From assembly GCF_003019035.1 (NCBI RefSeq), contig NZ_CP027447.1: DNA of 64,000 bases; one strand, given 5' to 3'. Positions 1,836 to 35,515 of this stretch are shown piece after piece. Position 1 is the first letter of the stretch. Each line of letters starts with the position of its first letter. The notes under the pieces are model-generated. The model saw only the letters and a list, made by a program, of their open reading frames with translations. It had not been told where the DNA came from and did not search any database. The stretch comes from Escherichia coli. Lineage in GTDB: Bacteria > Pseudomonadota > Gammaproteobacteria > Enterobacterales > Enterobacteriaceae. The translations under genes were made by a program, and so were the position numbers.

Positions 1836-3353
1836 TCATCCTTCGTTATGCATTTCGAGATTTTCCACTTCGTTCTGACGTTGCACTGCTTTGGCGTCGT
1901 CATTACGTAACGTATCGAGGAAATCGAGGTAGCCCTGATCAACATCTTTGGTGACGTAGACGCCGTTGAATACCGAGCATTCAAACTGCTGGATATCCGG
2001 GTTTTCAGCGCGAACGGCTTCGATCAGATCGTTCAGATCCTGGAAAATCAACCCGTCAGCACCGATGATCTGGCGAATTTCATCTACTTCGCGACCGTGA
2101 GCGATCAGTTCCGTGGCGCTCGGCATATCAATACCATAAACGTTCGGGAAGCGAATTTCCGGTGCCGCAGAAGCGAGGTACACTTTCTTCGCTCCGGCTT
2201 CGCGTGCCATCTCGATAATCTGCTCAGAAGTGGTGCCACGGACGATGGAGTCGTCGACCAGCAGGACGTTTTTATCGCGGAACTCGGCGCGGTTGGCGTT
2301 CAGTTTACGGCGCACGGACTTACGACGCAGCTGCTGACCCGGCATGATGAAGGTGCGGCCAACATAGCGGTTTTTAACGAAGCCCTGGCGGTACGGTTTG
2401 CCCAGAATACGCGCAATTTCCAGCGCGATATCACACGAGGTTTCCGGGATCGGGATCACCACGTCGATATCCAGATCTTCCCATTCGCGGGCAATTTTCT
2501 CGCCCAGTTTGGTGCCCATATTCACGCGCGCGCTGTAAACGGAAATTTTGTCGATGAACGAGTCCGGGCGAGCAAAGTATACATACTCAAACAGGCACGG
2601 ATTGCTGACCGGATTGTCAGCACATTGACGGGTAAACAACTGCCCTTCTTCAGTGATGTAAATCGCTTCGCCAGGCGCGACGTCACGCAGGAAATCAAAG
2701 CCCAGCGTATCGAGCGCAACGCTTTCGGAAGCGACCATATATTCTGTGCGGTTCTCGTCAATATCACGTTTTCCCAGTACCAGCGGACGAATCCCGTTAG
2801 GATCGCGGAAAGCAACCATACCGTGGCCGATAATCATCGCCACGCAGGCATACGCGCCGCGGATTAAGCGGTTTGTGGCAGCAATGGCAGCGAAAATATT
2901 GTCGGCTTCCAGCGGGTAGTGGCGGAAGTTGTCCAGCTCGCTGGCGAAGATATTAAGCAGAATCTCCGAGTCGGAAGTGGTGTTGATGTGGCGGCGTTTT
3001 TCTTCAAACAGTTTTTTACGCAACTCGTGAGCGTTGGTCAGATTGCCGTTGTGGGCAAGCGTAATGCCATACGGAGAGTTAACGTAAAACGGCTGCGCTT
3101 CAGAGGCGCTGGAGCTACCAGCCGTAGGGTAACGCACATGACCAATGCCCATATTGCCCTGCAAACGCTGCATATGGCGAGCTTCAAATACATCGCTCAC
3201 CAGCCCGTTCGCTTTACGCAAACGGAAGCAGTTATTGGCATCAATGGTGATGATGCCGGCGGCATCCTGACCGCGATGCTGAAGCACCGTTAAGGCATCA
3301 TAAATCGACTGGTTAACCGGCATAACACCGGCGATACCGACAATACCGCACAT
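1836..3353 (-). CDS. purF: Amidophosphoribosyltransferase
   Basis: 505-aa ORF starting MCGIVGIAG (N-terminal Cys nucleophile). Carries the PRPP-binding motif [13 protein letters not shown]. Confidence 0.95.
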
Positions 3354-15866: not shown

Positions 15867-16256
15867 ATGATTGACGCTCATGACTTCACAAGATGGGTGC
15901 GCACACAGGACACCCGTCTGGCTCCCGTTCTTCAGGGATTATTTGATCTCTACATCCGTGGTCGTGACAACAGAGCACGCACCACAAAACCAGAGAATGC
16001 AGACACCCTTTATTTCACAGTAGACGACTGCTACCGCGTGGACTTCACACCACACGGGCTGGCGTTGCACTGCCTGACACCACACGGCGAATCACTACTG
16101 GCTTATTACGACTCCCCGGCCTCCGTATTTGCGGCAATGCTGGCGCATCGCACTGCTGGCGGGTGTGCCTCGCTGAGTGAATACACCGCTGAATTTAACC
16201 GCCTTTCCACCCTCTTCTCGCAGGAGTGGCAGCGCGTGACGGGATACCAGCCATGA
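15867..16256 (+). CDS. Hypothetical 129-aa protein
   Basis: ORF whose stop overlaps the probable gene A start (ATGA). Confidence 0.55.
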   Translation: MIDAHDFTRWVRTQDTRLAPVLQGLFDLYIRGRDNRARTTKPENADTLYFTVDDCYRVDFTPHGLALHCLTPHGESLLAYYDSPASVFAAMLAHRTAGGCASLSEYTAEFNRLSTLFSQEWQRVTGYQP

Positions 16257-19093
16257 GTGAGTTTGCATGGAGCTGGAATGAACCACGGCCAGCCATTGAT
16301 CCAGCCAGATTTACGGAGCACAGGCAGGAAACTGAAACCGACCTGCAACGCGCCATCCGTTACTACCTTGAGGCGGACAAAAGGGCACAGAAAGAACAGG
16401 AAGCAAAGGAAGAAGCCTTTTTCGCACAATCCGCCATGGGTAAAAAACTCATGGCATCCCATGAGGAAGCCGGACAGCGTGAAAAGCTGGCACAGAGCAT
16501 CATCAGTAAGCGCCGGGCAACAGAACAAGACCCGGTAGCCCGTGCCTTTGCCACACTGAAGGCGCTTCCCGTTTATCTGCGAGAACCTCTGAGCCGCCAC
16601 CTCTCTTTCCTGCGCAAGAAGCAGGAAGCCGATCGTCAGAAAGGCAAAAAGAGCTGGCAGGCGGAACGCTATGCACGCGGAACCCTGCGCAAAATATTCG
16701 AACGTCTGGACCGCACCGACAGCCGCTGGCTGACACCGGGTTATCGCTCTCTTGCCGGACGCGAACGCCTGGACGATTTGCTTTACCTGCCGCAGCTCAA
16801 CAAACACCAGATACAGACGCTGGCCACCATGACGGCGGCGATGTTCAGCAGCACCTTCGAAAAACTCTGCGATGGCTTTGGCGCGACTGATGGCGAACTG
16901 ACCATGGATGTAACGCTGAAGGCGTATCAGATGCTGGCCCGCATGGCGTTACACCTGCACATCATGCCTCCACATTATGACGCACTGACAACAGATAAAG
17001 ACCGGAGGAACGAACCGGACACGGAGCTGCTGCCGGGCGCAATCCTTCGCCTGACCTGTGCGGAATGGTGGAAACGCAAACTGTGGCTGTTACGTTGCGA
17101 GTGGAGAGAAGAACAACTCCGCGCCGCCTGTCTGGTTTCCAGAAAAACATCACCCTATCTGAGCCAGGACGCGTTAAGCGAGTTTCGCGCACAGCGCGAG
17201 AAAACACGCGATTTCCTGAAAAGTTTCATGCTGGAAAATGAAGACGGGTTCACGATTGATCTCGAGACGGTGTATTACGCGGGAGTAAGTAACCCGGTTC
17301 ACCGTAAGGCAGAAATGATGGCCACCATGAAGGGACTGGAACTTCTGGCCGAAGCCCGTGGCGACAGAGCGGTGTTTCTGACTGTCACCTGCCCGTCAAA
17401 ATACCACGCAACAACGGAGAACGGTCATCCGAACCCCAAATGGAACGGGGCCACCATGCGCGACTCCAGCGATTACCTGGTTAACACGTTTTTTGCGGCG
17501 GTCCGCAAAAAACTGAACCGCGACGGCCTGCGCTGGTATGGCATCCGCACGGTGGAGCCTCACCATGACGGCACCGTGCACTGGCACATGATGGTCTTTG
17601 CTCATCCAGAAGAAATCGACAGCATCGTGGCCATCACCCGCGATATTGCCATTCAGGAAGACCGCCACGAGCTGGGCAATGATATTACTCCGCGCTTTAA
17701 GGTGGAGTATGTCGACGGCTCAAAAGGCACACCAACCAGCTACATCGCCACCTACATCGGAAAGAACCTGGACAGCCGCGCCGTGGATGGCATCGACCCG
17801 AAAACGGGCAAGCCACGCGTTGACCACGAAACCGGAAAATCAATGGCCGAGAGCGTGGAACGCGCCATCGGCTGGGCGCGCCTTCACCGGGTCCGCCAGT
17901 TCCAGTTCTTTGGTATCCCCTCCCGTCAGGTGTGGCGTGAACTGCGCCGCCTTGCCAGCCAGATGGCACGCAACCCGGAAGGCCCGCAACGGCTGAAGGA
18001 TGACGCAATGGACGCGGTACTCGCTGCCGCTGATGCCGGATGTTTTGCCACCTACATTGAGAAACAGGGTGGCGTACTTGTTCCACGCAAAGACTACCTG
18101 ATTCGCACCGCCTACGACCTCGCAGATGAGCTGAACGATTACGGCGAGCAGAGTGTACAGATTTACGGGATCTGGTCGCCGCTCATCGGGGAGTCTTCCC
18201 GCGTGTGCACGCACCCGGATAACTGGAAGCTGGTAAGACGTAAACCGGAAGCGGAAGACAGCGCCCGCGAAAATGGTTTTGACCTTCAGGGCGGCCCTGC
18301 CGCCCCTTGGACTCGTGGCAATAACTGTCCCCGTGTACAGGAAACGGACAACAACGGGACAGAACAGCCGGAAGAACGGCCAGCACCGTGGCCGCAGCTC
18401 CCTGACGGCGTTGAAGTGAACGAATGGATGCGCTCACTGAAACGGCACGAACGCCGGGCGCTGATGCGTTCGCTTCGTGACAAACAGGCAAAAAACAGCA
18501 GTGATGAAATGCAGAGCTGGACACAGAGCCGCAAACAGCAGCGGCCTTTGCCTGATAACCACGAATTACTCGCTAAAGAATGGCGGGAGTCTGCTGAATC
18601 TCTCGGCCTGCATATCGGTGAACAGCAGATGCAGCACCTGTTACGGGGCGGCAGTCTGTACGTTGACGGCAGCATCATTGCACCGCAGGGATTTGAAATT
18701 GTACGCAAACCGGATACCCGACCGGACAGCCGGATCACGCAGCTCTGGCAGCGCCTGAGCCGTAACCACGGCGTAAGCAGCACGGAGATCCGCCATAACC
18801 CGGTCGCCAGCTATCTGGAACAGCTGGCGGCATCAGACCCCGAAGCCGCCGCACGCCTGGCATCCACACTTCAGCAAGACCAGAACACCATGAAAACACC
18901 CGTTACCGTGCTTTCTGACATGCTGCGCGCCATCCGCGACGCAGAGCACGCACAGAGAATCAGTGAAACCACTGAACGCGCCCGCCGCAAAGCAGACCTG
19001 CTGCGGGGTGGCCTGACCATTGGAAACAAAAAACAGACAGAAACGGGATTCACAAATCCCGTAAATGAGCAAAAAACGCGCCGCGATATATGA
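16253..19093 (+). CDS. A: P2 gpA-type replication initiation endonuclease
   Basis: LTVTCPSKYHA and VEPHHDGTVHWHMMVF are rolling-circle HUH/Tyr motifs that parallel remembered P2 A. The start is placed at the ATG (MSEFAWSW) coupled to the upstream stop. Confidence 0.9.
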   Translation: MSEFAWSWNEPRPAIDPARFTEHRQETETDLQRAIRYYLEADKRAQKEQEAKEEAFFAQSAMGKKLMASHEEAGQREKLAQSIISKRRATEQDPVARAFATLKALPVYLREPLSRHLSFLRKKQEADRQKGKKSWQAERYARGTLRKIFERLDRTDSRWLTPGYRSLAGRERLDDLLYLPQLNKHQIQTLATMTAAMFSSTFEKLCDGFGATDGELTMDVTLKAYQMLARMALHLHIMPPHYDALTTDKDRRNEPDTELLPGAILRLTCAEWWKRKLWLLRCEWREEQLRAACLVSRKTSPYLSQDALSEFRAQREKTRDFLKSFMLENEDGFTIDLETVYYAGVSNPVHRKAEMMATMKGLELLAEARGDRAVFLTVTCPSKYHATTENGHPNPKWNGATMRDSSDYLVNTFFAAVRKKLNRDGLRWYGIRTVEPHHDGTVHWHMMVFAHPEEIDSIVAITRDIAIQEDRHELGNDITPRFKVEYVDGSKGTPTSYIATYIGKNLDSRAVDGIDPKTGKPRVDHETGKSMAESVERAIGWARLHRVRQFQFFGIPSRQVWRELRRLASQMARNPEGPQRLKDDAMDAVLAAADAGCFATYIEKQGGVLVPRKDYLIRTAYDLADELNDYGEQSVQIYGIWSPLIGESSRVCTHPDNWKLVRRKPEAEDSARENGFDLQGGPAAPWTRGNNCPRVQETDNNGTEQPEERPAPWPQLPDGVEVNEWMRSLKRHERRALMRSLRDKQAKNSSDEMQSWTQSRKQQRPLPDNHELLAKEWRESAESLGLHIGEQQMQHLLRGGSLYVDGSIIAPQGFEIVRKPDTRPDSRITQLWQRLSRNHGVSSTEIRHNPVASYLEQLAASDPEAAARLASTLQQDQNTMKTPVTVLSDMLRAIRDAEHAQRISETTERARRKADLLRGGLTIGNKKQTETGFTNPVNEQKTRRDI
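19043..19062. repeat. Palindrome ACGGGATTcacaAATCCCGT (copy 1; candidate parC/ParR site)
   Basis: 8-bp arms within a roughly 30-bp unit that is repeated 73 bp downstream. Lies in the last codons of gene A. Confidence 0.45.
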
Positions 19094-19169: not shown

Positions 19170-20129
19170 ATGAAAATTTGTATCGATGACGGCTCCACCA
19201 ACATCAAGCTGGCATGGACTGAGAACGGCGAACGCCGCAACGCCATCAGCCCGAACAGCTTCAAGTCGGAATGGTCTGCGCCGTTCGGTGGCACGCAGCC
19301 CGCGAACTACATGCTTGATGGCGTGCGCTATGGTTTTGATCCGGTCAGCGATCGCTTTGTCCAGACGACCGACACGCAATACCAGTACAGCGATGTGAAT
19401 GTCATTGCCATTCATCACGCGCTGGTCAAATCAGGCATCACACCACAGGAAGTGGATGTGGTTGTCACCCTGCCACTGAGCGAATATTTCGACACAAACG
19501 CACAGCCGGACATGGCCAACATCAACCGCAAAAAAGCAAACGTCATGCGCCCGGTGGCGTACCAGAACGGAAAAGCATTCACTATCCGTAACGTACGGGT
19601 TATGCCTGAATCCATTCCGGCTGGTTTTAAAGCACTGGCTGACATGAGTCCGTTTGAATCCCTGCTGATTGTGGATTTAGGCGGAACCACGCTGGATGTG
19701 GCAAAGGTTCAGGGACAACTGGCAGGTATCAGCCAGGTGTTTTGCGATCCACACGTAGGCGTTTCCCTGATGGCCGATGCCGTACTGTCGGTGATGGCCA
19801 CTAACGGTATGCGCACCAGTCACCACATCGCCAATACCATTATCGAACATCGCCATGATGAAGCCTGGCTGCGCCAGCACATCCACAATGACGCGCATTA
19901 CGCCAGCCTGATGGCGGTTATTCGTGAAAAGGAAGAAACACTGAAACAACGCGTGATCCGCGCGCTGGCGGTTTTTTCGGGTTACGGGCGGGTGATGGTT
20001 GTCGGTGGCGGGGCGGAGATTGTGGCACCCGCTATCCGCGAAGCCTGCGGAGTTAATGCGACTTTCATCGCGGACGGGGTGCCACAATTTGCTCTGGTTA
20101 ATGGGCTGTACGCAATGAACAAGGAGTAA
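19170..20129 (+). CDS. parM: ParM/StbA actin-like plasmid segregation ATPase
   Basis: 319 aa. ICIDDGSTNIKLAW, YSDVNVIAIHHAL, MPESIPAG, IVDLGGTTLDV and VVGGGAE align colinearly with remembered plasmid R1 ParM. Confidence 0.85.
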   Translation: MKICIDDGSTNIKLAWTENGERRNAISPNSFKSEWSAPFGGTQPANYMLDGVRYGFDPVSDRFVQTTDTQYQYSDVNVIAIHHALVKSGITPQEVDVVVTLPLSEYFDTNAQPDMANINRKKANVMRPVAYQNGKAFTIRNVRVMPESIPAGFKALADMSPFESLLIVDLGGTTLDVAKVQGQLAGISQVFCDPHVGVSLMADAVLSVMATNGMRTSHHIANTIIEHRHDEAWLRQHIHNDAHYASLMAVIREKEETLKQRVIRALAVFSGYGRVMVVGGGAEIVAPAIREACGVNATFIADGVPQFALVNGLYAMNKE

Positions 20130-20133
20130 ACCA

Positions 20134-20445
20134 ATGACGACACCAACCAGAAGAATAAGTTTCTATCTGAAGCCAGCTGCCGTCAAGAACGAAGGAGAAG
20201 CATGCGCCTGGCTGGACAGTCTTACACCAGAAGCCCGCAAAAGCGGCCAACGCGTGGCTTTTCTGGCCGGGCTGGCACTTCTGAAGACGAATCCGGCAGA
20301 GGCTTACCGACTGGCCGCATGGGCTGATGATGAGATGTTACCTGTGACACAAATCAGCTCAAAAAAGTTTGAAGCACAGTCTGCACCAGTGGCTAAGATA
20401 ACCAGCCAGATGGCTGGGAATATCCGGGCGTTATTTCCTGAGTAA
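20134..20445 (+). CDS. parR: ParR-like centromere-binding adaptor
   Basis: 103 aa. RRISFYLKP...LDSLTPEARKSGQRVAFLAGLALLKTNP parallels the R1 ParR N-terminal RHH region. Lies immediately downstream of parM. Confidence 0.7.
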   Translation: MTTPTRRISFYLKPAAVKNEGEACAWLDSLTPEARKSGQRVAFLAGLALLKTNPAEAYRLAAWADDEMLPVTQISSKKFEAQSAPVAKITSQMAGNIRALFPE

Positions 20446-20515
20446 AAGCATCTGCGCGAAAAATGCTCACGTTTATAGAGACAGTATCATTCCATTTGGC
20501 ACACTTACTTCAATA

Positions 20516-20602
20516 ATCGATCTGTTAAACAAATAGATTGTCTATTATCTATCGATTAAAACGATCAATTATCTTGACAGTAATGTGCCTTTTTGTAAGA
20601 TC
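20516..20602 (+). promoter_or_regulatory. GATC-rich operator-like module plus sigma70-like promoter reading rightward
   Basis: ATCGATCTGTTA (20516-20527) and ATCGATTAAAACGATCAAT (20551-20569). TTGACA (20574-20579), 16 nt, TAAGAT (20596-20601). Three GATC sites at 20519, 20563 and 20599; the last overlaps the -10. Both motifs recur at 45754-45804. Confidence 0.5.
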
Positions 20603-20809
20603 GTTCGCATTGTGAGCGACAAGATAATTGCGCGGCATTGTCCATGCAAAACGCCCCAATAGCAGCAACTATTGGGGCGTAAAACTCGGTCGGACTCACT
20701 TAACCTGATATGCGTGCCTTCCGAAGTAAATCAAAATGTGCGTCGTATATTTTATTGCTTACACGCACCTCTGTAAAGGCACGCATATTTTTCCTATGAG
20801 GTAAATAAA

Positions 20810-21079
20810 GTGCGGGCTAAAACAGGTATTTGCAAGAACCCTCATCGTTATAATCCAACATTTCTGTCTCTCCCTGAATATCAAGGACAAGAAGGTCGGC
20901 ACAAATGCGCTGCCTGTGCTTTTGAGCTAGGCATAAAAGATGCGCTTGAAGGACGCGCTATGGCTCAGAATGATTTAGTTTTAGCTAACATTCCGTTTAG
21001 CCAGGCTGGAACTGTAAGGCACAGAGATGCCTATGAAGCATATGTTCGTGGTTGGCGATTAATACACAGCAACAATTGA
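20810..21079 (+). CDS. Hypothetical 89-aa moron protein
   Basis: GTG start 9 nt after GAGG. It has its own promoter region and a strong terminator. Contains HKCAACAFELG. Family not recognised. Confidence 0.5.
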   Translation: MRAKTGICKNPHRYNPTFLSLPEYQGQEGRHKCAACAFELGIKDALEGRAMAQNDLVLANIPFSQAGTVRHRDAYEAYVRGWRLIHSNN

Positions 21080-21088
21080 TACTTTTGA

Positions 21089-21111
21089 AGCGCCGATAAG
21101 GCGCTTTTTTT
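21089..21111 (+). terminator. Rho-independent terminator
   Basis: AGCGCC-gataa-GGCGCT followed by T7. Confidence 0.8.
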
Positions 21112-21398
21112 GTTTGCACGATAGTGCACAAGTTTGCACAATTTTTTTGAACGACTTTTTGTACTTCCGGCCCGCGTGGTGGCTGGATCCGTCAAGGATC
21201 CGTACGTGCACAAAAATACGCGTTTTTTCTGCGCGCAGGTGACGGGGGAACAGCCCGCGTTTCAGGGGGTAAATAGCATTCCCTTAACGATGTCGCAGCG
21301 ACATGACAGAATGGCCGTATTTCTCACGCTGAGCGTGAAAAATACGTGAGGGATTCTGCTTTGATGGGGTGAAAGGTAAGGCCGTCAAAATCGCACTG

Positions 21399-21420
21399 AG
21401 GCGGCGAGAACATGCAGTCA
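21399..21420. other. Possible cos (cohesive end) region
   Basis: GGCGGCGAGAACATGCAGTCAG lies about 165 bp from the 3' end of Q, the expected P2 cos position. It has only weak resemblance to remembered P2 cos (GGCGAGGCGGGGAAAGCAC). Confidence 0.25.
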
Positions 21421-21514
21421 GCGCAGTGGGATTGCGTAAGAGTCTGACCGTCGATGATGGCAATAAGCAGGAAAGCGTCGTGAAATTATCTGACTGATAC
21501 AGGAGCTGGAGAGT

Positions 21515-21539
21515 CGGGGCATAAATTTTTTATGCCCCG
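21515..21539. other. GC-rich hairpin just downstream of Q
   Basis: CGGGGCATAAA-ttt-TTTATGCCCCG, an 11-bp stem with no flanking U tract. Confidence 0.4.
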
Positions 21540-21565
21540 GCGAAGCAGCAGACAAGCGAAGCGCG

Positions 21566-22612
21566 TCAGGATGTGGGCTGGGTATCTAACAGTGCGTAAG
21601 GGTTAAAGCGGATCACCTCTTCGCCAAGCCAGTCATTGATGTGCTTCATGGCCTCCATGACGGGCATCAGCTCGTTAATTGCGTAAACCCGCGCGGCCTT
21701 CTCCACATCACCAAACGCACTTTTTTCGCCCGGCATCGCCCCCATCAGTTGCGGCGGAACGCGGTGCGCAGCCAGCACATCATCACGGGATGCCGCCTTA
21801 ACATTCATGAACTCATCTTTTGCGGTGATCTGCTGGAACGGCAAAATTTGCACCCCCTCTTTGCCCCCGTTGGGCGCATGAATGAGCACGTTTTTAAACG
21901 CACCACCACCACGTGCCCCCTGTAGCGTTTCTTTCAGGGAGTCCATGCTTTCGCGGTTTACCTGCGCTGCACCGATGTAGATGATGCACCCGGCGTGGGA
22001 TCCGTTGTCGTAGTACAGTTTTCTGAACATGTCCGCTGAATGAGAAAGGCTGGCCGAGAGTAATGCGCCAAGATATTCCGGCATGCCGTAGATTTCCTGG
22101 TTAATATCCGGATTCATCAGGTGGCACACTTTGCCAGGACGAAACTGGAACGCGTCCTTGCCATCCTGCACATACCACCATGATTCAAGATCGCTTCCGC
22201 GTCGCATGTATTTCGCCAGGGCGTGCCGTAATTTAAGCGGTTCGCCGAGCATATTGCTTCGAAGCTCAAGGAATGCGTTACCGAACACAAACCAGTCCAG
22301 CGCCAGCGCCGAGAAATCCTGCCGGGAAAGCAGCGGGTGCGGGATGTAGCAACCGAGTAATACATTGCGCTTAAAGTAAAGCGCAGACTGATGCCAGGAC
22401 GTTTGCCGGGCAGCTCTTGCCAGACCGTACCAGTCCACCGGGGTTTCATACCACCGCCCGTTATCAGCACAGTACATATTGTCCAGCAGGTCATGCCCGG
22501 TCAGGCGATAAGGACCATCAAATGTGAATGCACTGAGCGATGATTCTTTCCTGAGCGCATCAGCGAGATCAATGCGTGAACTCATGCGCACTTTTTTATT
22601 TTTTCTGCTCAT
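21566..22612 (-). CDS. Q: Portal protein (P2 gpQ)
   Basis: 348 aa, colinear with remembered P2 Q (GRWYE, VFGNAFLE, PDINQEIYGMPEYL, HRVPPQLMG). Confidence 0.93.
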   Translation of the reverse strand: MSRKNKKVRMSSRIDLADALRKESSLSAFTFDGPYRLTGHDLLDNMYCADNGRWYETPVDWYGLARAARQTSWHQSALYFKRNVLLGCYIPHPLLSRQDFSALALDWFVFGNAFLELRSNMLGEPLKLRHALAKYMRRGSDLESWWYVQDGKDAFQFRPGKVCHLMNPDINQEIYGMPEYLGALLSASLSHSADMFRKLYYDNGSHAGCIIYIGAAQVNRESMDSLKETLQGARGGGAFKNVLIHAPNGGKEGVQILPFQQITAKDEFMNVKAASRDDVLAAHRVPPQLMGAMPGEKSAFGDVEKAARVYAINELMPVMEAMKHINDWLGEEVIRFNPYALLDTQPTS

Positions 22613-24363
22613 CAGAACTCCATAACCGTGAAACGCTCGTTTTCTCCTTCGCCGCCAATCGGTTCGTTAATGACAGCAAGCATGGTTGCCCACGCAAGGT
22701 CGCCGTGGCTGATCCCCCTCGCTCGGTCCGTTTCGTAAGTGATAAAGCCGCCCGGTGTTTTCACCTTACGCACGGCGTTAAAGGCCGCGACCAGCTCGCG
22801 TTCGGCGCGATCGTATTCCCACCGCCCGGCACGCATTATTTGCAGCATTTTCAGTACCAGCGACCGTTTTGATGACAGCGTGAAGGTGTACGGAATAGCA
22901 GCAGGGAAAAACCGCTTCACTATCTGATAAACAGCCTCCCCGTTCCCGCCCGTCACATCAATGCCGATGTGTTCCACGTTGTAGCGATACGTGAACTCTT
23001 CAATGACTCTGGCCTGTTCTTCAAACTCCAGCCCCTGAACGCGTCGCGTCTCCACCGTTCGAAAACGGCCACCAGGAACAGCCGGAGGAACCACCACGGA
23101 CACAGCGCCGCTGTCGCCGTTGCCACTACTGCCGTTTGCGTCATACCCAATCCATACCGGACGATTCCCCATCGGGCGGGGAGCAAAAGGTTTCCAGTCT
23201 TTCCAGTCGTCGTATCCGTCAACACCACAGCCAATCAGGATATTCAGGTTAAATGCCGATTCCCCTTCGCGGACAAACTCACACATATAGAGATTGAGGA
23301 ACTCGTCTTCGGTGTTTTCATCACGAATTTCATCAATATCGGTGTGTTTCCAGCCGTGATTAACCACATCTTCCAGCGTGACAATTTGCCGCCACGTCCG
23401 GTCAGGGCAGATAAGCCCGTTATGCAGCGTTTTCCAGTCCACAGAAAAACGCTGGCGTTTATGCGTGGCCTTTTTCTCGTTCCAGCGGTCGCCGTTCCAG
23501 TAGGCGTATGCCTCGTGCGTTTCGGTGGATGGCGTGGAGAAGTAGGTGCGCCGCAGTCCGCTGAGGGTTGCCATAGCGCCAGCCACCTTGCGCAGTTCAG
23601 CAAAGCGACTGACCCAGAAAAATTCATCAAAATAAAAATTGCCCGTATAGGACTGTGCCGACGCAGCAGAAGTGCCGAGAAAATGCAGCTCTGCGCCGTT
23701 GGAGAGGATGATTTTATCACCCCCTTTCAGCTCCACATCAACTTCAGCCGCGGCCTTCTGAATAATGCTTTTAAACTGGAACGCCTGACGACGCGACGCA
23801 GACAAAAAAATCTGGTTACGCTGGTAAGGTTGCGCCACATCGTCACGCAGCGCCATCAGCAGCGCTTCCTGTGCAAAATACCAGGTCGCCCCAATCTGTC
23901 GGGATTTCAGGATCATCCTGTTACGTATCCCGGCTTCCCTGCAAAGGGTCAGGGAGTCAAACCAGCCCCGCTGATGCCACTCCAGCCTGCTGATGATTTT
24001 TTCCCGCAGTGCGGCAATCTGTTCCGGCGTGAAATGATTTTTGAGTTTTTTCGCCCGGCCTTTCTTTCCTGCGGCCATCACATCCGGCTGGCCATCATGC
24101 AGCTTTTTAAGCTGCCGGGTCAGCAGGTCTATTTCCTTAAAGTCACCGCCTGTTTTATTCTGTTTTTCAGTAAGCTGGATGAGGCGCGCATCGATGGACT
24201 GCGTGACACGCTGCACGGGTGGCGTTTCATCCCACTGGTCACGTTTTTTCCACGCATAAATCGTGTTCGGGTTTATTCCCATCAGACGTGATATTTCTGC
24301 GGGCGGATAACCCTGCCAGTAAAGTTGCCGCGCACGCTGGCGCACAAAAGCGTCCTGAATCAT
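22612..24363 (-). CDS. P: Terminase large (ATPase) subunit (P2 gpP)
   Basis: 583 aa with an N-terminal HTH-like region and a terminase ATPase/nuclease body. Overlaps the Q start. Confidence 0.92.
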   Translation of the reverse strand: MIQDAFVRQRARQLYWQGYPPAEISRLMGINPNTIYAWKKRDQWDETPPVQRVTQSIDARLIQLTEKQNKTGGDFKEIDLLTRQLKKLHDGQPDVMAAGKKGRAKKLKNHFTPEQIAALREKIISRLEWHQRGWFDSLTLCREAGIRNRMILKSRQIGATWYFAQEALLMALRDDVAQPYQRNQIFLSASRRQAFQFKSIIQKAAAEVDVELKGGDKIILSNGAELHFLGTSAASAQSYTGNFYFDEFFWVSRFAELRKVAGAMATLSGLRRTYFSTPSTETHEAYAYWNGDRWNEKKATHKRQRFSVDWKTLHNGLICPDRTWRQIVTLEDVVNHGWKHTDIDEIRDENTEDEFLNLYMCEFVREGESAFNLNILIGCGVDGYDDWKDWKPFAPRPMGNRPVWIGYDANGSSGNGDSGAVSVVVPPAVPGGRFRTVETRRVQGLEFEEQARVIEEFTYRYNVEHIGIDVTGGNGEAVYQIVKRFFPAAIPYTFTLSSKRSLVLKMLQIMRAGRWEYDRAERELVAAFNAVRKVKTPGGFITYETDRARGISHGDLAWATMLAVINEPIGGEGENERFTVMEF

Positions 24364-34903: not shown

Positions 34904-35515
34904 TCAACTGGCTGCTGCCAGTGGTATTTCCGGCCAGTTGATATCTGATGCCATGTTTATATCCATTGCGTTCAGTGCGTCTATATAATCCAGCACGGCG
35001 TTAAGCCGGGTGGTTTCTGCCTGCGTCAACTTCCGCCCGGCCCGCAACTTCAACTGAATCAGACTAATGGAAGCCATTGCAGTATCAATCAGCGACTGGC
35101 GCTGTGTTTCTGCCGCTTCTACTGCGGCGCTATGCTGTGCCTCGGTATCCGTCACCCATTTTTCACCATCCCATTTATCGTATGGTGTTAACGGGGCGAT
35201 AGTGGTTGTATTTTTCGGGTAGTCACCCAGCGTCGTGATTTCTTCGGTGTTTCCCGTATCAGTGCTATAGACGGTTTCACCACGATGATCTGGCGTATAC
35301 TCCCATGAATTTAAATTCTCCGAACGGCGGATAGCATAGCCCGCTTTATGTGCGCCCGGGGCATCTAAACAGGAATTTGCCGGAATACCGACACCCGCAG
35401 CAAGATATTCAGTTGATTCGGAAATATATTCCCGTGTCTCACCATCATAGTTATAAACGACGATGTTTCCTGCCTGTACGGCAATAAGGTCATCATTTAA
35501 TATCGCGTTATTCAT
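34904..35515 (-). CDS. Tail fiber assembly chaperone (gpG/Tfa family)
   Basis: 203 aa. The C-terminal coiled region with RLNAVLDYIDAL...WPEIP is typical of Tfa proteins. Its start overlaps the stop of cassette Sv3 (TAATG). Confidence 0.85.
   Translation of the reverse strand: MNNAILNDDLIAVQAGNIVVYNYDGETREYISESTEYLAAGVGIPANSCLDAPGAHKAGYAIRRSENLNSWEYTPDHRGETVYSTDTGNTEEITTLGDYPKNTTTIAPLTPYDKWDGEKWVTDTEAQHSAAVEAAETQRQSLIDTAMASISLIQLKLRAGRKLTQAETTRLNAVLDYIDALNAMDINMASDINWPEIPLAAAS

Follow-up and report, generated by a model that had tools for sequence, protein, structure and literature searches.

The stretch of DNA analysed here (the window: 64,000 nucleotides of the Escherichia coli contig NZ_CP027447.1, assembly GCF_003019035.1) contains a P2-family prophage that is P88-like (Xuanwuvirus). 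Between the stbB gene and the cos region of this prophage lies a short cassette with a single open reading frame (ORF) for an 89-amino-acid (aa) protein, separated from stbB by a gap of 364 nucleotides (nt). The cos region follows on the 3' side of the ORF, and portal gene Q and terminase gene P lie beyond it. A σ70-type promoter-like site, a long structured leader and a terminator accompany the ORF on the plus strand. The minus strand has a second promoter-like site and a hairpin, which delimit a predicted cis-antisense RNA that covers part of the leader (Table 1).

The boundaries of the cassette were derived from comparison with phage P88 and Citrobacter phage Shae_phiSM, whose sequences flanking the slot are 89-96% identical to those of the window. 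Homology to both phages ends at the stop codon of stbB (20445) and restarts at ~21096-21114. The cargo found at the same slot is different: P88 carries two other genes, gp19-gp20, and Shae_phiSM carries a minus-strand gene, memP, annotated as encoding a membrane protein. The cassette thus shares with hotspot cargo the property that the content varies while the flanks are conserved. Its location between the gpA-like gene and the portal gene, beside cos, is agreed upon by the PGAP and phage annotations and corresponds to the gpA-gpQ hotspot, a cos-proximal site described by Rousset et al. 2022, where this arrangement is tabulated (PMC9122126). Consensus scans predicted that the cassette has a promoter (10 of 12 positions) and a terminator (8 pairs and seven T) of its own. 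These comparisons support well the view that the region from 20446 to ~21110 is an exchangeable accessory cassette (moron) of a P88-like P2-family prophage. The proposal of the initial annotation, an independent promoter-gene-terminator unit at a P2 hotspot, was therefore borne out in both its parts, with other cargo occupying the slot in P88 and Shae_phiSM.

The cassette with its 3' margin (695 base pairs (bp), 20446-21140) is 99.3% identical to the corresponding sequence of Escherichia phage 520873 (Peduoviridae, Xuanwuvirus). The same 695 bp were found in 165 of 5426 complete E. coli genomes, in every case on the chromosome, and a search of a plasmid collection with the 695-bp cassette gave no match. 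Many of the 165 carrier genomes have no PGAP annotation at all under the cassette match.

Table 1. Features of the cassette and its surroundings in the window (positions in the window; strand given where assigned).
Feature	Position	Strand	Description
gpA-like replication endonuclease	16226-19093		955 aa
ParM/StbA actin-like segregation ATPase	19170-20129		family match, E 7e-82
stbB, Plasmid_stab_B (ParR-like)	20134-20445		family match, E 1e-23
Variable cargo cassette, slot between stbB/parR and cos (gpA-gpQ hotspot)	20446-21110	none	boundaries from flank homology
AT-rich imperfect palindrome	20513-20572		26-nt arms, 73% complementary, just 5' of the -35 element; possible operator or UP region
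Perfect 11-bp inverted repeat around the plus promoter	20566-20630 (arms 20566-20576 and 20620-20630)		CAATTATCTTG / CAAGATAATTG; candidate operator
σ70-type promoter-like site of the 89-aa gene	20574-20601	+	TTGACA (20574-20579), 16 nt, TAAGAT (20596-20601); 10/12
Structured 5' untranslated region (UTR)	20608-20809	+	~200 nt; fold z = -3.9
Predicted cis-antisense RNA	20647-20743	-	~96 nt; promoter and terminator-like hairpin
12-bp hairpin, proposed intrinsic terminator of the antisense RNA	20651-20680	-	ACGCCCCAATAG (20651-20662) / CTATTGGGGCGT (20669-20680); G+C-rich; U-run on minus strand only
13-bp repeat with inner pair	20708-20788	+	ATATGCGTGCCTT (20708-20720) / AAGGCACGCATAT (20776-20788); long stem-loop in mRNA; left arm within antisense RNA, right arm outside
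Antisense promoter-like site	20749-20777	-	-35 TTTACA (20777-20772), 17 nt, -10 TAAAAT (20754-20749); 10/12
Shine-Dalgarno sequence GAGG	20798-20801	+	8 nt before GTG; could serve as ribosome-binding site
89-aa ORF	20810-21079	+	GTG start; phrog_3941
Intrinsic terminator	about 21087-21111	+	GAAGCGCC-GATAA-GGCGCTT and T7; 8 pairs and T-run
Start of conserved phage backbone	21114-21146	+	TGCAC repeats and second terminator-like hairpin (21124-21139 and T-run); common to P88 and Shae_phiSM
Portal Q	21566-22612	minus	
Terminase P	22612-24363	minus	

The leader contains two perfect inverted repeats. The 12-bp hairpin has a loop of 6 nt, and the 13-bp repeat, whose arms are 55 nt apart, ends 21 nt before the GTG and encloses an inner pair, GTGCGT/ACGCAC (20738-20743 and 20763-20768). 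The initial annotation had described both structures and the inner pair, together with the promoter candidate, the GTG ORF at 20810 and the strong terminator after the gene; all were found again, and the only correction is a shift by 1 nt of the left arm of the 13-bp repeat, which occupies 20708-20720 and not 20709-20721. When 20446-20809 was shuffled 2000 times with preservation of dinucleotides, one shuffle produced a perfect inverted repeat with arms of 12 bp or more and a loop of at most 80 nt, and no shuffle produced two; chance alone would not be expected to yield repeats of this length. The 223-nt leader folds at -71.4 kcal/mol, with z = -3.9 versus shuffles.

A promoter scan of 1.5 kb returned two sites only, the plus promoter and the minus-strand TTTACA-17-TAAAAT site. 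The latter sits between the arms of the 13-bp repeat, with 2 nt of its -35 element overlapping the right arm. Read on the plus strand, the 12-bp hairpin runs into AAAAC; read on the minus strand, it runs into UUUG, and the final stem base adds a fourth U. In the terminator scan of this analysis, the 3' end of the antisense terminator is at -160. Counted from the start codon, the predicted RNA extends from -163 to -68; it is fully complementary to ~+40 to +136 of the mRNA leader and folds at -36.8 kcal/mol (z = -4.5). We infer that both strands are transcribed and that the cassette would contain two convergently overlapping transcription units. The initial annotation had read the leader as nested mRNA hairpins or, alternatively, as the place of a small RNA. 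Both inverted repeats are present, but the 12-bp one looks like a minus-strand terminator and the 13-bp repeat encloses the predicted promoter of the same transcript; given the minus promoter-like site and the minus-only U-run, the small RNA is the better reading.

The Rfam scan of the leader that the initial annotation had proposed was run over 20300-21600 and yielded, at E <= 10, only sub-threshold hairpin matches. The minus strand had weak matches to the terminal hairpins of ctRNA_pGA1 and sar (E 0.11-0.15, below threshold), and the best scores for the sar, ctRNA_pGA1 and Spot 42 families were 19-22 bits versus thresholds of 43-80. A separate match to the gyrA leader RNA at 21507-21560, just upstream of the end of the portal gene (22 bits versus a threshold of 45, E 0.013), is probably due to chance.

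Homologous genes were collected from phages, IMG/VR and one genome per species, and leaders were classified among the orphan copies of enterobacteria and related gammaproteobacteria (Gilliamella). Three leader classes without significant mutual similarity were distinguished: class A (loci L052, L054, L055, L063, L071, L091, L095, L123 and L124, from Citrobacter, Buttiauxella, Dryocola, Klebsiella, Serratia and E. coli), class B (L004, L039, L040 and L043), and the window's own. In classes A and B, too, the homologues come with a promoter of their own, located 210-250 nt upstream. The 5' end of the minus-strand -35 element lies 34 nt before the start codon in the window, 31-33 nt upstream in most class-A and class-B loci, and 26 and 38 nt upstream in two class-A loci. 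The element reads TTTACA or TTTACT in all but one case; at L052, no minus -35 site passed the promoter scan. At five class-A loci the scan called a minus terminator, which ends 159-161 nt upstream; the end is ~260 nt upstream in class B and 160 nt upstream in the window. With a background of 6e-4 promoter-like sites per nt per strand, we estimate the probability that the position would coincide by chance in two further independent classes at ~1e-5. That the leader architecture is kept among relatives, and that it points to a cis-antisense RNA, is well supported by this comparison of sequences.

Class A was informative at the level of RNA structure. A module of ~280 nt is conserved across its nine loci, and the corresponding minus RNA (~106 nt, spanning -165 to -60) has a consensus of 35 pairs, seven of them with compensatory changes. 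Several conserved G:U pairs of this RNA (e.g., in 9/9, 8/9 and 7/9 sequences) would become mismatches (A.C) if the plus strand were the RNA. The nine sequences were used to build a covariance model (R1), which recovered, from outside its training set, the Serratia oryzae locus L066 with an E-value of 9e-7, the match being on the minus strand upstream of the family gene. Rfam searches with the class-A and class-B leaders found nothing except tRNAs. RNAalifold was uninformative for class B, where three of the four sequences are nearly identical. The class-A module also occurs 5' of a different gene, for a 253-aa protein (WP_001548971, no Pfam match), in ~94 E. coli genomes; in E. coli ABWA45, on an island near tRNA-Leu (L123, 3020-4058), it is 72% identical to the Citrobacter copy and matches R1 with an E-value of 7e-21. 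Its presence in front of another cargo gene therefore suggests a portable gating device for accessory genes.

These data bear on the possibility that there is no antisense RNA and that both repeats act in cis as hairpins of the mRNA leader, in 5' stabilisation, processing or occlusion of the ribosome-binding site (RBS). The plus-strand leader does fold above chance with both stems (z = -3.9), the RBS is predicted to be paired, and class-A leaders also have a 5'-proximal plus hairpin showing compensatory changes. We nevertheless consider this explanation unlikely: at most loci, in three dissimilar leader classes, a minus promoter-like site is present ~31-34 nt before the start codon, the U-run of the hairpin is on the minus strand only, and the class-A G:U pairs are valid on the minus strand only. 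The two models are compatible, since the antisense RNA may have the mRNA structure as its target and remodel it. An insulating function of the 12-bp hairpin, which would shield parM-stbB from minus-strand transcription that starts in the late P-Q (terminase-portal) operon and reads through cos, is quite improbable. Genes P and Q do lie upstream on the minus strand, and no minus terminator was called between Q and the cassette. The hairpin, however, belongs to the variable cassette and not to the backbone, is missing from relatives with other cargo, and has a dedicated minus promoter ~95 nt upstream, a spacing that is also seen in class A.

The region around the plus promoter contains further symmetrical elements. 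The left arm of the 11-bp inverted repeat overlaps the -35 element and its right arm is at ~+13 to +23. Three GATC sites (20519, 20563 and 20599) fall within 81 nt at the plus promoter, one of them overlapping the -10 element (TAAGATC); the window average is 3.2 GATC per kb. Class-B leaders (L004 ~3275-3335; L039 ~2775-2835) likewise have three GATC at the promoter, and two more in hairpin arms. A family-wide, Dam-read operator was considered and rejected, since the 54 upstream regions contain 2.2 GATC per kb, which is background; the clusters in the window and in L004 and L039 are a local observation only. It might still be argued that the two leader repeats are sites for proteins at the DNA level, serving either as operators bound by the 89-aa protein or by phage regulators, or for recombination when cassettes are exchanged. 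The operator-like appearance of the 11-bp repeat and of the AT-rich palindrome, the GATC cluster, and a perfect symmetry that would suit a dimeric protein agree with this. However, a 6-nt loop between G+C-rich arms with a T-run has the form of a terminator and not of an operator, class-A helices keep their pairing by compensatory changes, which argues for RNA, and the cassette boundaries are elsewhere, at 20445 and ~21100. We regard such DNA sites as a very unlikely explanation of the repeats.

The initial annotation had stated that the 89-aa protein matches nothing. This did not hold: the protein belongs to phrog_3941 (annotated as "unknown function"; E 6.3e-49 over residues 4-89), and a profile search of a database clustered at 90% identity returned at least 1598 relatives at E <= 0.001. 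Most of them are 83-90 aa long, unnamed and without a Pfam domain; an exhaustive HMMER search of cluster representatives gave 172 matches. That the cassette contains a real, conserved protein-coding gene is well supported. Residues C8, H12, C33 and C36 are invariant or nearly so in the family and form a C-x3-H...C-x2-C motif (CHCC), which probably constitutes a zinc-binding site; Q25, R30, H31, S64, Q65, R70 and H71 are also conserved. The protein is internally duplicated (hhalign probability of the alignment of the two halves 96%, E 5e-9), each half having a (L/I)PxxQ(G/A)xxxRH(K/R) motif and the cysteines being retained in the first half only. An AlphaFold2 model (pLDDT 83, pTM 0.77) consists of beta-bridge-plus-helix repeats. 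Of the profile and structure searches proposed initially, the former gave the phrog_3941 match and the latter no structural match. Searches of Pfam, NCBIfam and PADLOC with the protein gave no match (no PADLOC-DB 2.0 family at E <= 1), neither the single sequence nor the profile had a meaningful match in sequence searches of the PDB, and nothing specific was found in the literature on the protein accession, the PHROG number or DpnII-associated zinc proteins.

The genomic company of the family was surveyed by calling ORFs in 80 species-level loci, clustering the neighbours and scanning them with Pfam and PADLOC; 61 family loci were scored. An adenine methyltransferase of any kind was adjacent at 36 of the 61 loci. 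By type, Dam-like D12 methyltransferases were present at 30 loci, N6_N4 methyltransferases at 22, DpnII endonucleases at 17, PDDEXK_11 nucleases at 11 and DUF6996/6997/7226 proteins at 9. The family gene is usually on the same strand as these neighbours, at the head or tail of the operon. The role in lysogenic conversion or phage defence that was initially suggested for the cassette agrees with this genomic association, and gained no further support.

The family domain was also found fused to NOV_C/DUF3883, HNH_2, DndB and WYL. The three NOV_C fusion genes that were looked up are all beside a PDDEXK_11 gene, and two of them are also beside a D12 methyltransferase gene; the third is near a contig end. 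In these type IV-like nucleases, two copies of the N-terminal half of the family domain occupy the N-terminus, where other NOV_C proteins have EVE (PF01878), a reader of modified bases, or MrcB_N (PF12102). Because the domain takes the position of a modified-DNA reader, it may recognise DNA or a methyltransferase or restriction partner; since the fusions stand beside a Dam-like methyltransferase and PDDEXK_11, they cannot simply be methyl-directed against the host's own mark. At L046, a further family-domain fusion lies inside a DpnII operon, and a NOV_C fusion lies downstream. As a separate observation, Bacteroidota DpnII operons (L046, L078, L099 and L104) encode fusions of 465-474 aa, with the family domain C-terminal, between the DpnII endonuclease and N6_N4 genes; these fusions resemble the DndB-like fusions among the representative proteins, and a conserved 175-aa membrane-protein-like protein is encoded 5' of them.

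Orphan copies of the gene occur in Enterobacterales, Vibrio, Pasteurellaceae and Alteromonadales, all of which have housekeeping Dam. The gene that follows an orphan copy on the same strand, at a distance of -4 to 56 nt, is often one with a match to a defence model: PtuA (Septu) at L111 and the candidate defence models PDC-M18A, PDC-S31 and PDC-S64 at L106, L085 and L101, respectively; at L054 and L055 it belongs to the Pfam family DUF4062. Homologues were also found at further sites that are classic for morons: a P22-like Salmonella phage has one downstream of cI, the slot where lambda has rexAB, and a Providencia phage has one on the opposite strand, in the interval from Q to the lysis genes. 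No Dam gene of their own was found in P88-type phages. The protein may represent a new small zinc-finger class tied to Dam-type GATC methylation, reading the state of the DNA or binding D12 methyltransferases or partner nucleases, although we hold this to be rather improbable. It is just as speculative that, outside Dam-positive gammaproteobacteria, the domain would stay with its Dam-like operon, either free or fused (NOV_C, HNH, DndB). The complementary suggestion, that in Dam-positive enterics, vibrios and phages the gene would be free-standing, use the host Dam, and be silenced by a fast-evolving cis-antisense RNA, deserves no more confidence.

Known systems resemble the cassette in part. 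The genes tin and old and the systems reported by Rousset et al. 2022, all cargo of the P2 gpA-gpQ hotspot, are alike in their slot and in being swapped between conserved flanks; the cassette differs in that its protein has no PADLOC match and that a defence role is only a candidate. SymE of E. coli has an AbrB-like fold and is SOS-regulated, whereas the window protein is of a CHCC zinc-finger type and its toxicity is hypothetical. The layout of symE/SymR is nevertheless similar, with a cis-antisense RNA of less than 100 nt over the 5' region of an mRNA for a soluble ~100-aa protein that targets nucleic acids (PMC4147584). At tisB/IstR-1, zorO/OrzO and shoB/OhsC, as proposed here, a small RNA binds inside a long structured 5' UTR, at a distance from the RBS, which is sequestered, and repression there involves a standby site and/or RNase III cleavage (PMC4147584). 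These three systems differ from the cassette in that their RNAs are divergent, with ~20 nt of complementarity, and their toxins are hydrophobic and shorter than 60 aa. Temperate-phage small RNAs that hold down an accessory or regulatory gene are exemplified by sar of P22 (ant) and OOP of lambda (cII); the Rfam sar model matches the window hairpin only (E 0.15, 22 bits versus a threshold of 43). In the rac prophage, the phage gene ralR is held down by the small RNA RalA, which acts in trans through 16 nt of complementarity (PMC4041452). The 89-aa protein has no homology to the proteins of ralR/RalA, sar/ant or OOP/cII.

These parallels allow a narrower form of the antisense explanation: the cassette could be a type I toxin-antitoxin or abortive-infection module, with the protein as a DNA-directed toxin and the antisense RNA as a labile antitoxin. 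Its layout is like that of symE/SymR and of type I loci with long 5' UTRs (PMC4147584), and RalR/RalA is a prophage type I system whose toxin is a small DNase (PMC4041452). The RBS is predicted to be sequestered, the family is fused to nuclease domains, and the class-A module precedes other cargo, as would be expected of a gate for harmful genes. However, toxicity of the protein is only hypothetical, most family members are in restriction-modification operons without such an RNA, and no nuclease motif or fold was detected. A typical type I toxin is, moreover, a small hydrophobic membrane peptide, whereas the protein of the window has 89 aa and an isoelectric point (pI) of 9.2 and is predicted to be soluble; SymE and RalR are exceptions to the rule of hydrophobic peptides (PMC4147584). 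We treat the toxin-antitoxin explanation as possible but doubtful.

C proteins of restriction-modification systems are helix-turn-helix factors. They resemble the family in size (~80-90 aa), in their frequent position at the head of an operon, and in short or overlapping junctions. The phrog_3941 family differs from them in having no helix-turn-helix match in Pfam or NCBIfam and in having the CHCC motif; its gene closes an operon as often as it opens one, and the domain is also found in fusions. The cassette cannot be filed as a type I toxin-antitoxin system, as a C protein or under an Rfam family, because in each case a defining feature is either lacking or only hypothetical. No earlier description of an antisense RNA gate at the gpA-gpQ hotspot was found in the literature.

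We propose the following mechanism. The σ70 promoter would drive an mRNA with a structured ~200-nt 5' UTR, the 89-aa ORF and its own terminator, and the minus promoter (20777->20749) and the 12-bp hairpin terminator would generate a cis-antisense RNA of ~96 nt. In the lysogen, this RNA would pair with the leader and hold synthesis of the protein down; as it would carry the same sequence as the right arm of the mRNA repeat, it would compete for the left arm. Repression would proceed via duplex-dependent cleavage of the mRNA, or via a blocked ribosome-loading or standby region, and loss of the antisense RNA (e.g., upon transcription shut-off or induction) would release expression. There is precedent for both duplex cleavage and standby competition among type I loci that have long 5' UTRs (PMC4147584). 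In folding predictions the RBS is paired either way, with CCUCAU (20840-20845) in the free leader and locally if 20647-20742 is blocked. Its sequestration in both states makes cleavage or standby blocking the more plausible route.

The antisense RNA probably represses the gene, and we infer that the protein recognises either DNA or a partner associated with methyltransferases or restriction enzymes, and that it acts in conflicts between phage and host or between phages. The full explanation, an RNA-gated cassette whose zinc-type protein would take part in such conflicts, is the one that we on balance favour. Several results weigh against it. The U-run of the antisense terminator is short (four U, then G) and was missed by a stock terminator scan. 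Perfect inverted repeats by themselves reveal neither the relevant strand nor whether the DNA or the RNA form matters. All window-type copies of the leader are at least 98.4% identical; the 34 copies amount to 11 unique sequences with no substitution in stems or promoter hexamers, a variation too small to reveal covariation. The R1 covariance model had no match in the window at E <= 10, so that the RNA of the window is an analogue by geometry and not a shown homologue; the relation is one of layout and, possibly, of very diverged homology. A simple on/off switch of the RBS was considered and rejected, since the site is paired with and without the antisense RNA. The family gene in restriction-modification operons has no such leader, and toxicity, if any, is therefore not general. 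Finally, the median pI of the family is 6.6, so that DNA binding is not obvious from charge, and the protein gave no similarity to any solved or viral predicted structure and showed no nuclease or helix-turn-helix motif.

Several observations were made on the neighbourhood of the cassette and on related phages. The sequence ATTGTGAGCG at 20609-20618 (~+2 to +11 of the predicted sense transcript) is the left half of lacO1; the right half differs, and the likeness is probably a chance one. Three TGCAC repeats and the second terminator-like hairpin with its T-run follow directly after the cassette terminator; they could serve the backbone as a terminator or be bound by a factor near cos. The gpA-like endonuclease has a long C-terminal extension rich in charged residues, the gpA of P2 being considerably shorter than 955 aa. 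The ParM/StbA and Plasmid_stab_B pair right after it (19170-20445) is kept across Xuanwuvirus phages (P88, Shae_phiSM); a phage that integrates would not be expected to have a plasmid-style partition pair, which may indicate an episomal stage. In about one third of related prophages, an extra insertion of ~630 bp is present between cos and the portal gene (window 21572-21591; L001 6196-6720), which codes for a 174-aa hypothetical ORF (WP_000236495) and constitutes a second small cargo site. P88 (L125) has, near its attachment end (34928-35068), an annotated host-killing gene of the hok/gef family (MokW-like), and a classic type I toxin is thus present elsewhere in the P88 phage group.

The analysis changes how a stretch considered "unannotated" is read: it now appears as a two-transcript regulatory unit, carried by ~3% of complete E. 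coli genomes. O111, O55:H7 and some O157:H7 strains are among the carriers, and PGAP often does not call the ORF in carrier genomes. The candidate antisense layout is common to three dissimilar leader classes, one of which shows covariation and is absent from Rfam. The protein belongs to a widespread, uncharacterised family of small proteins, present in many phyla and tied to Dam/DpnII-type restriction-modification and to defence islands, which makes the family an unstudied component of very common restriction-modification systems. If the link to Dam were true, the cassette would be an RNA-gated sensor or effector for un- or hemimethylated (foreign or replicating) DNA, and a new single-gene unit of defence or counter-defence.

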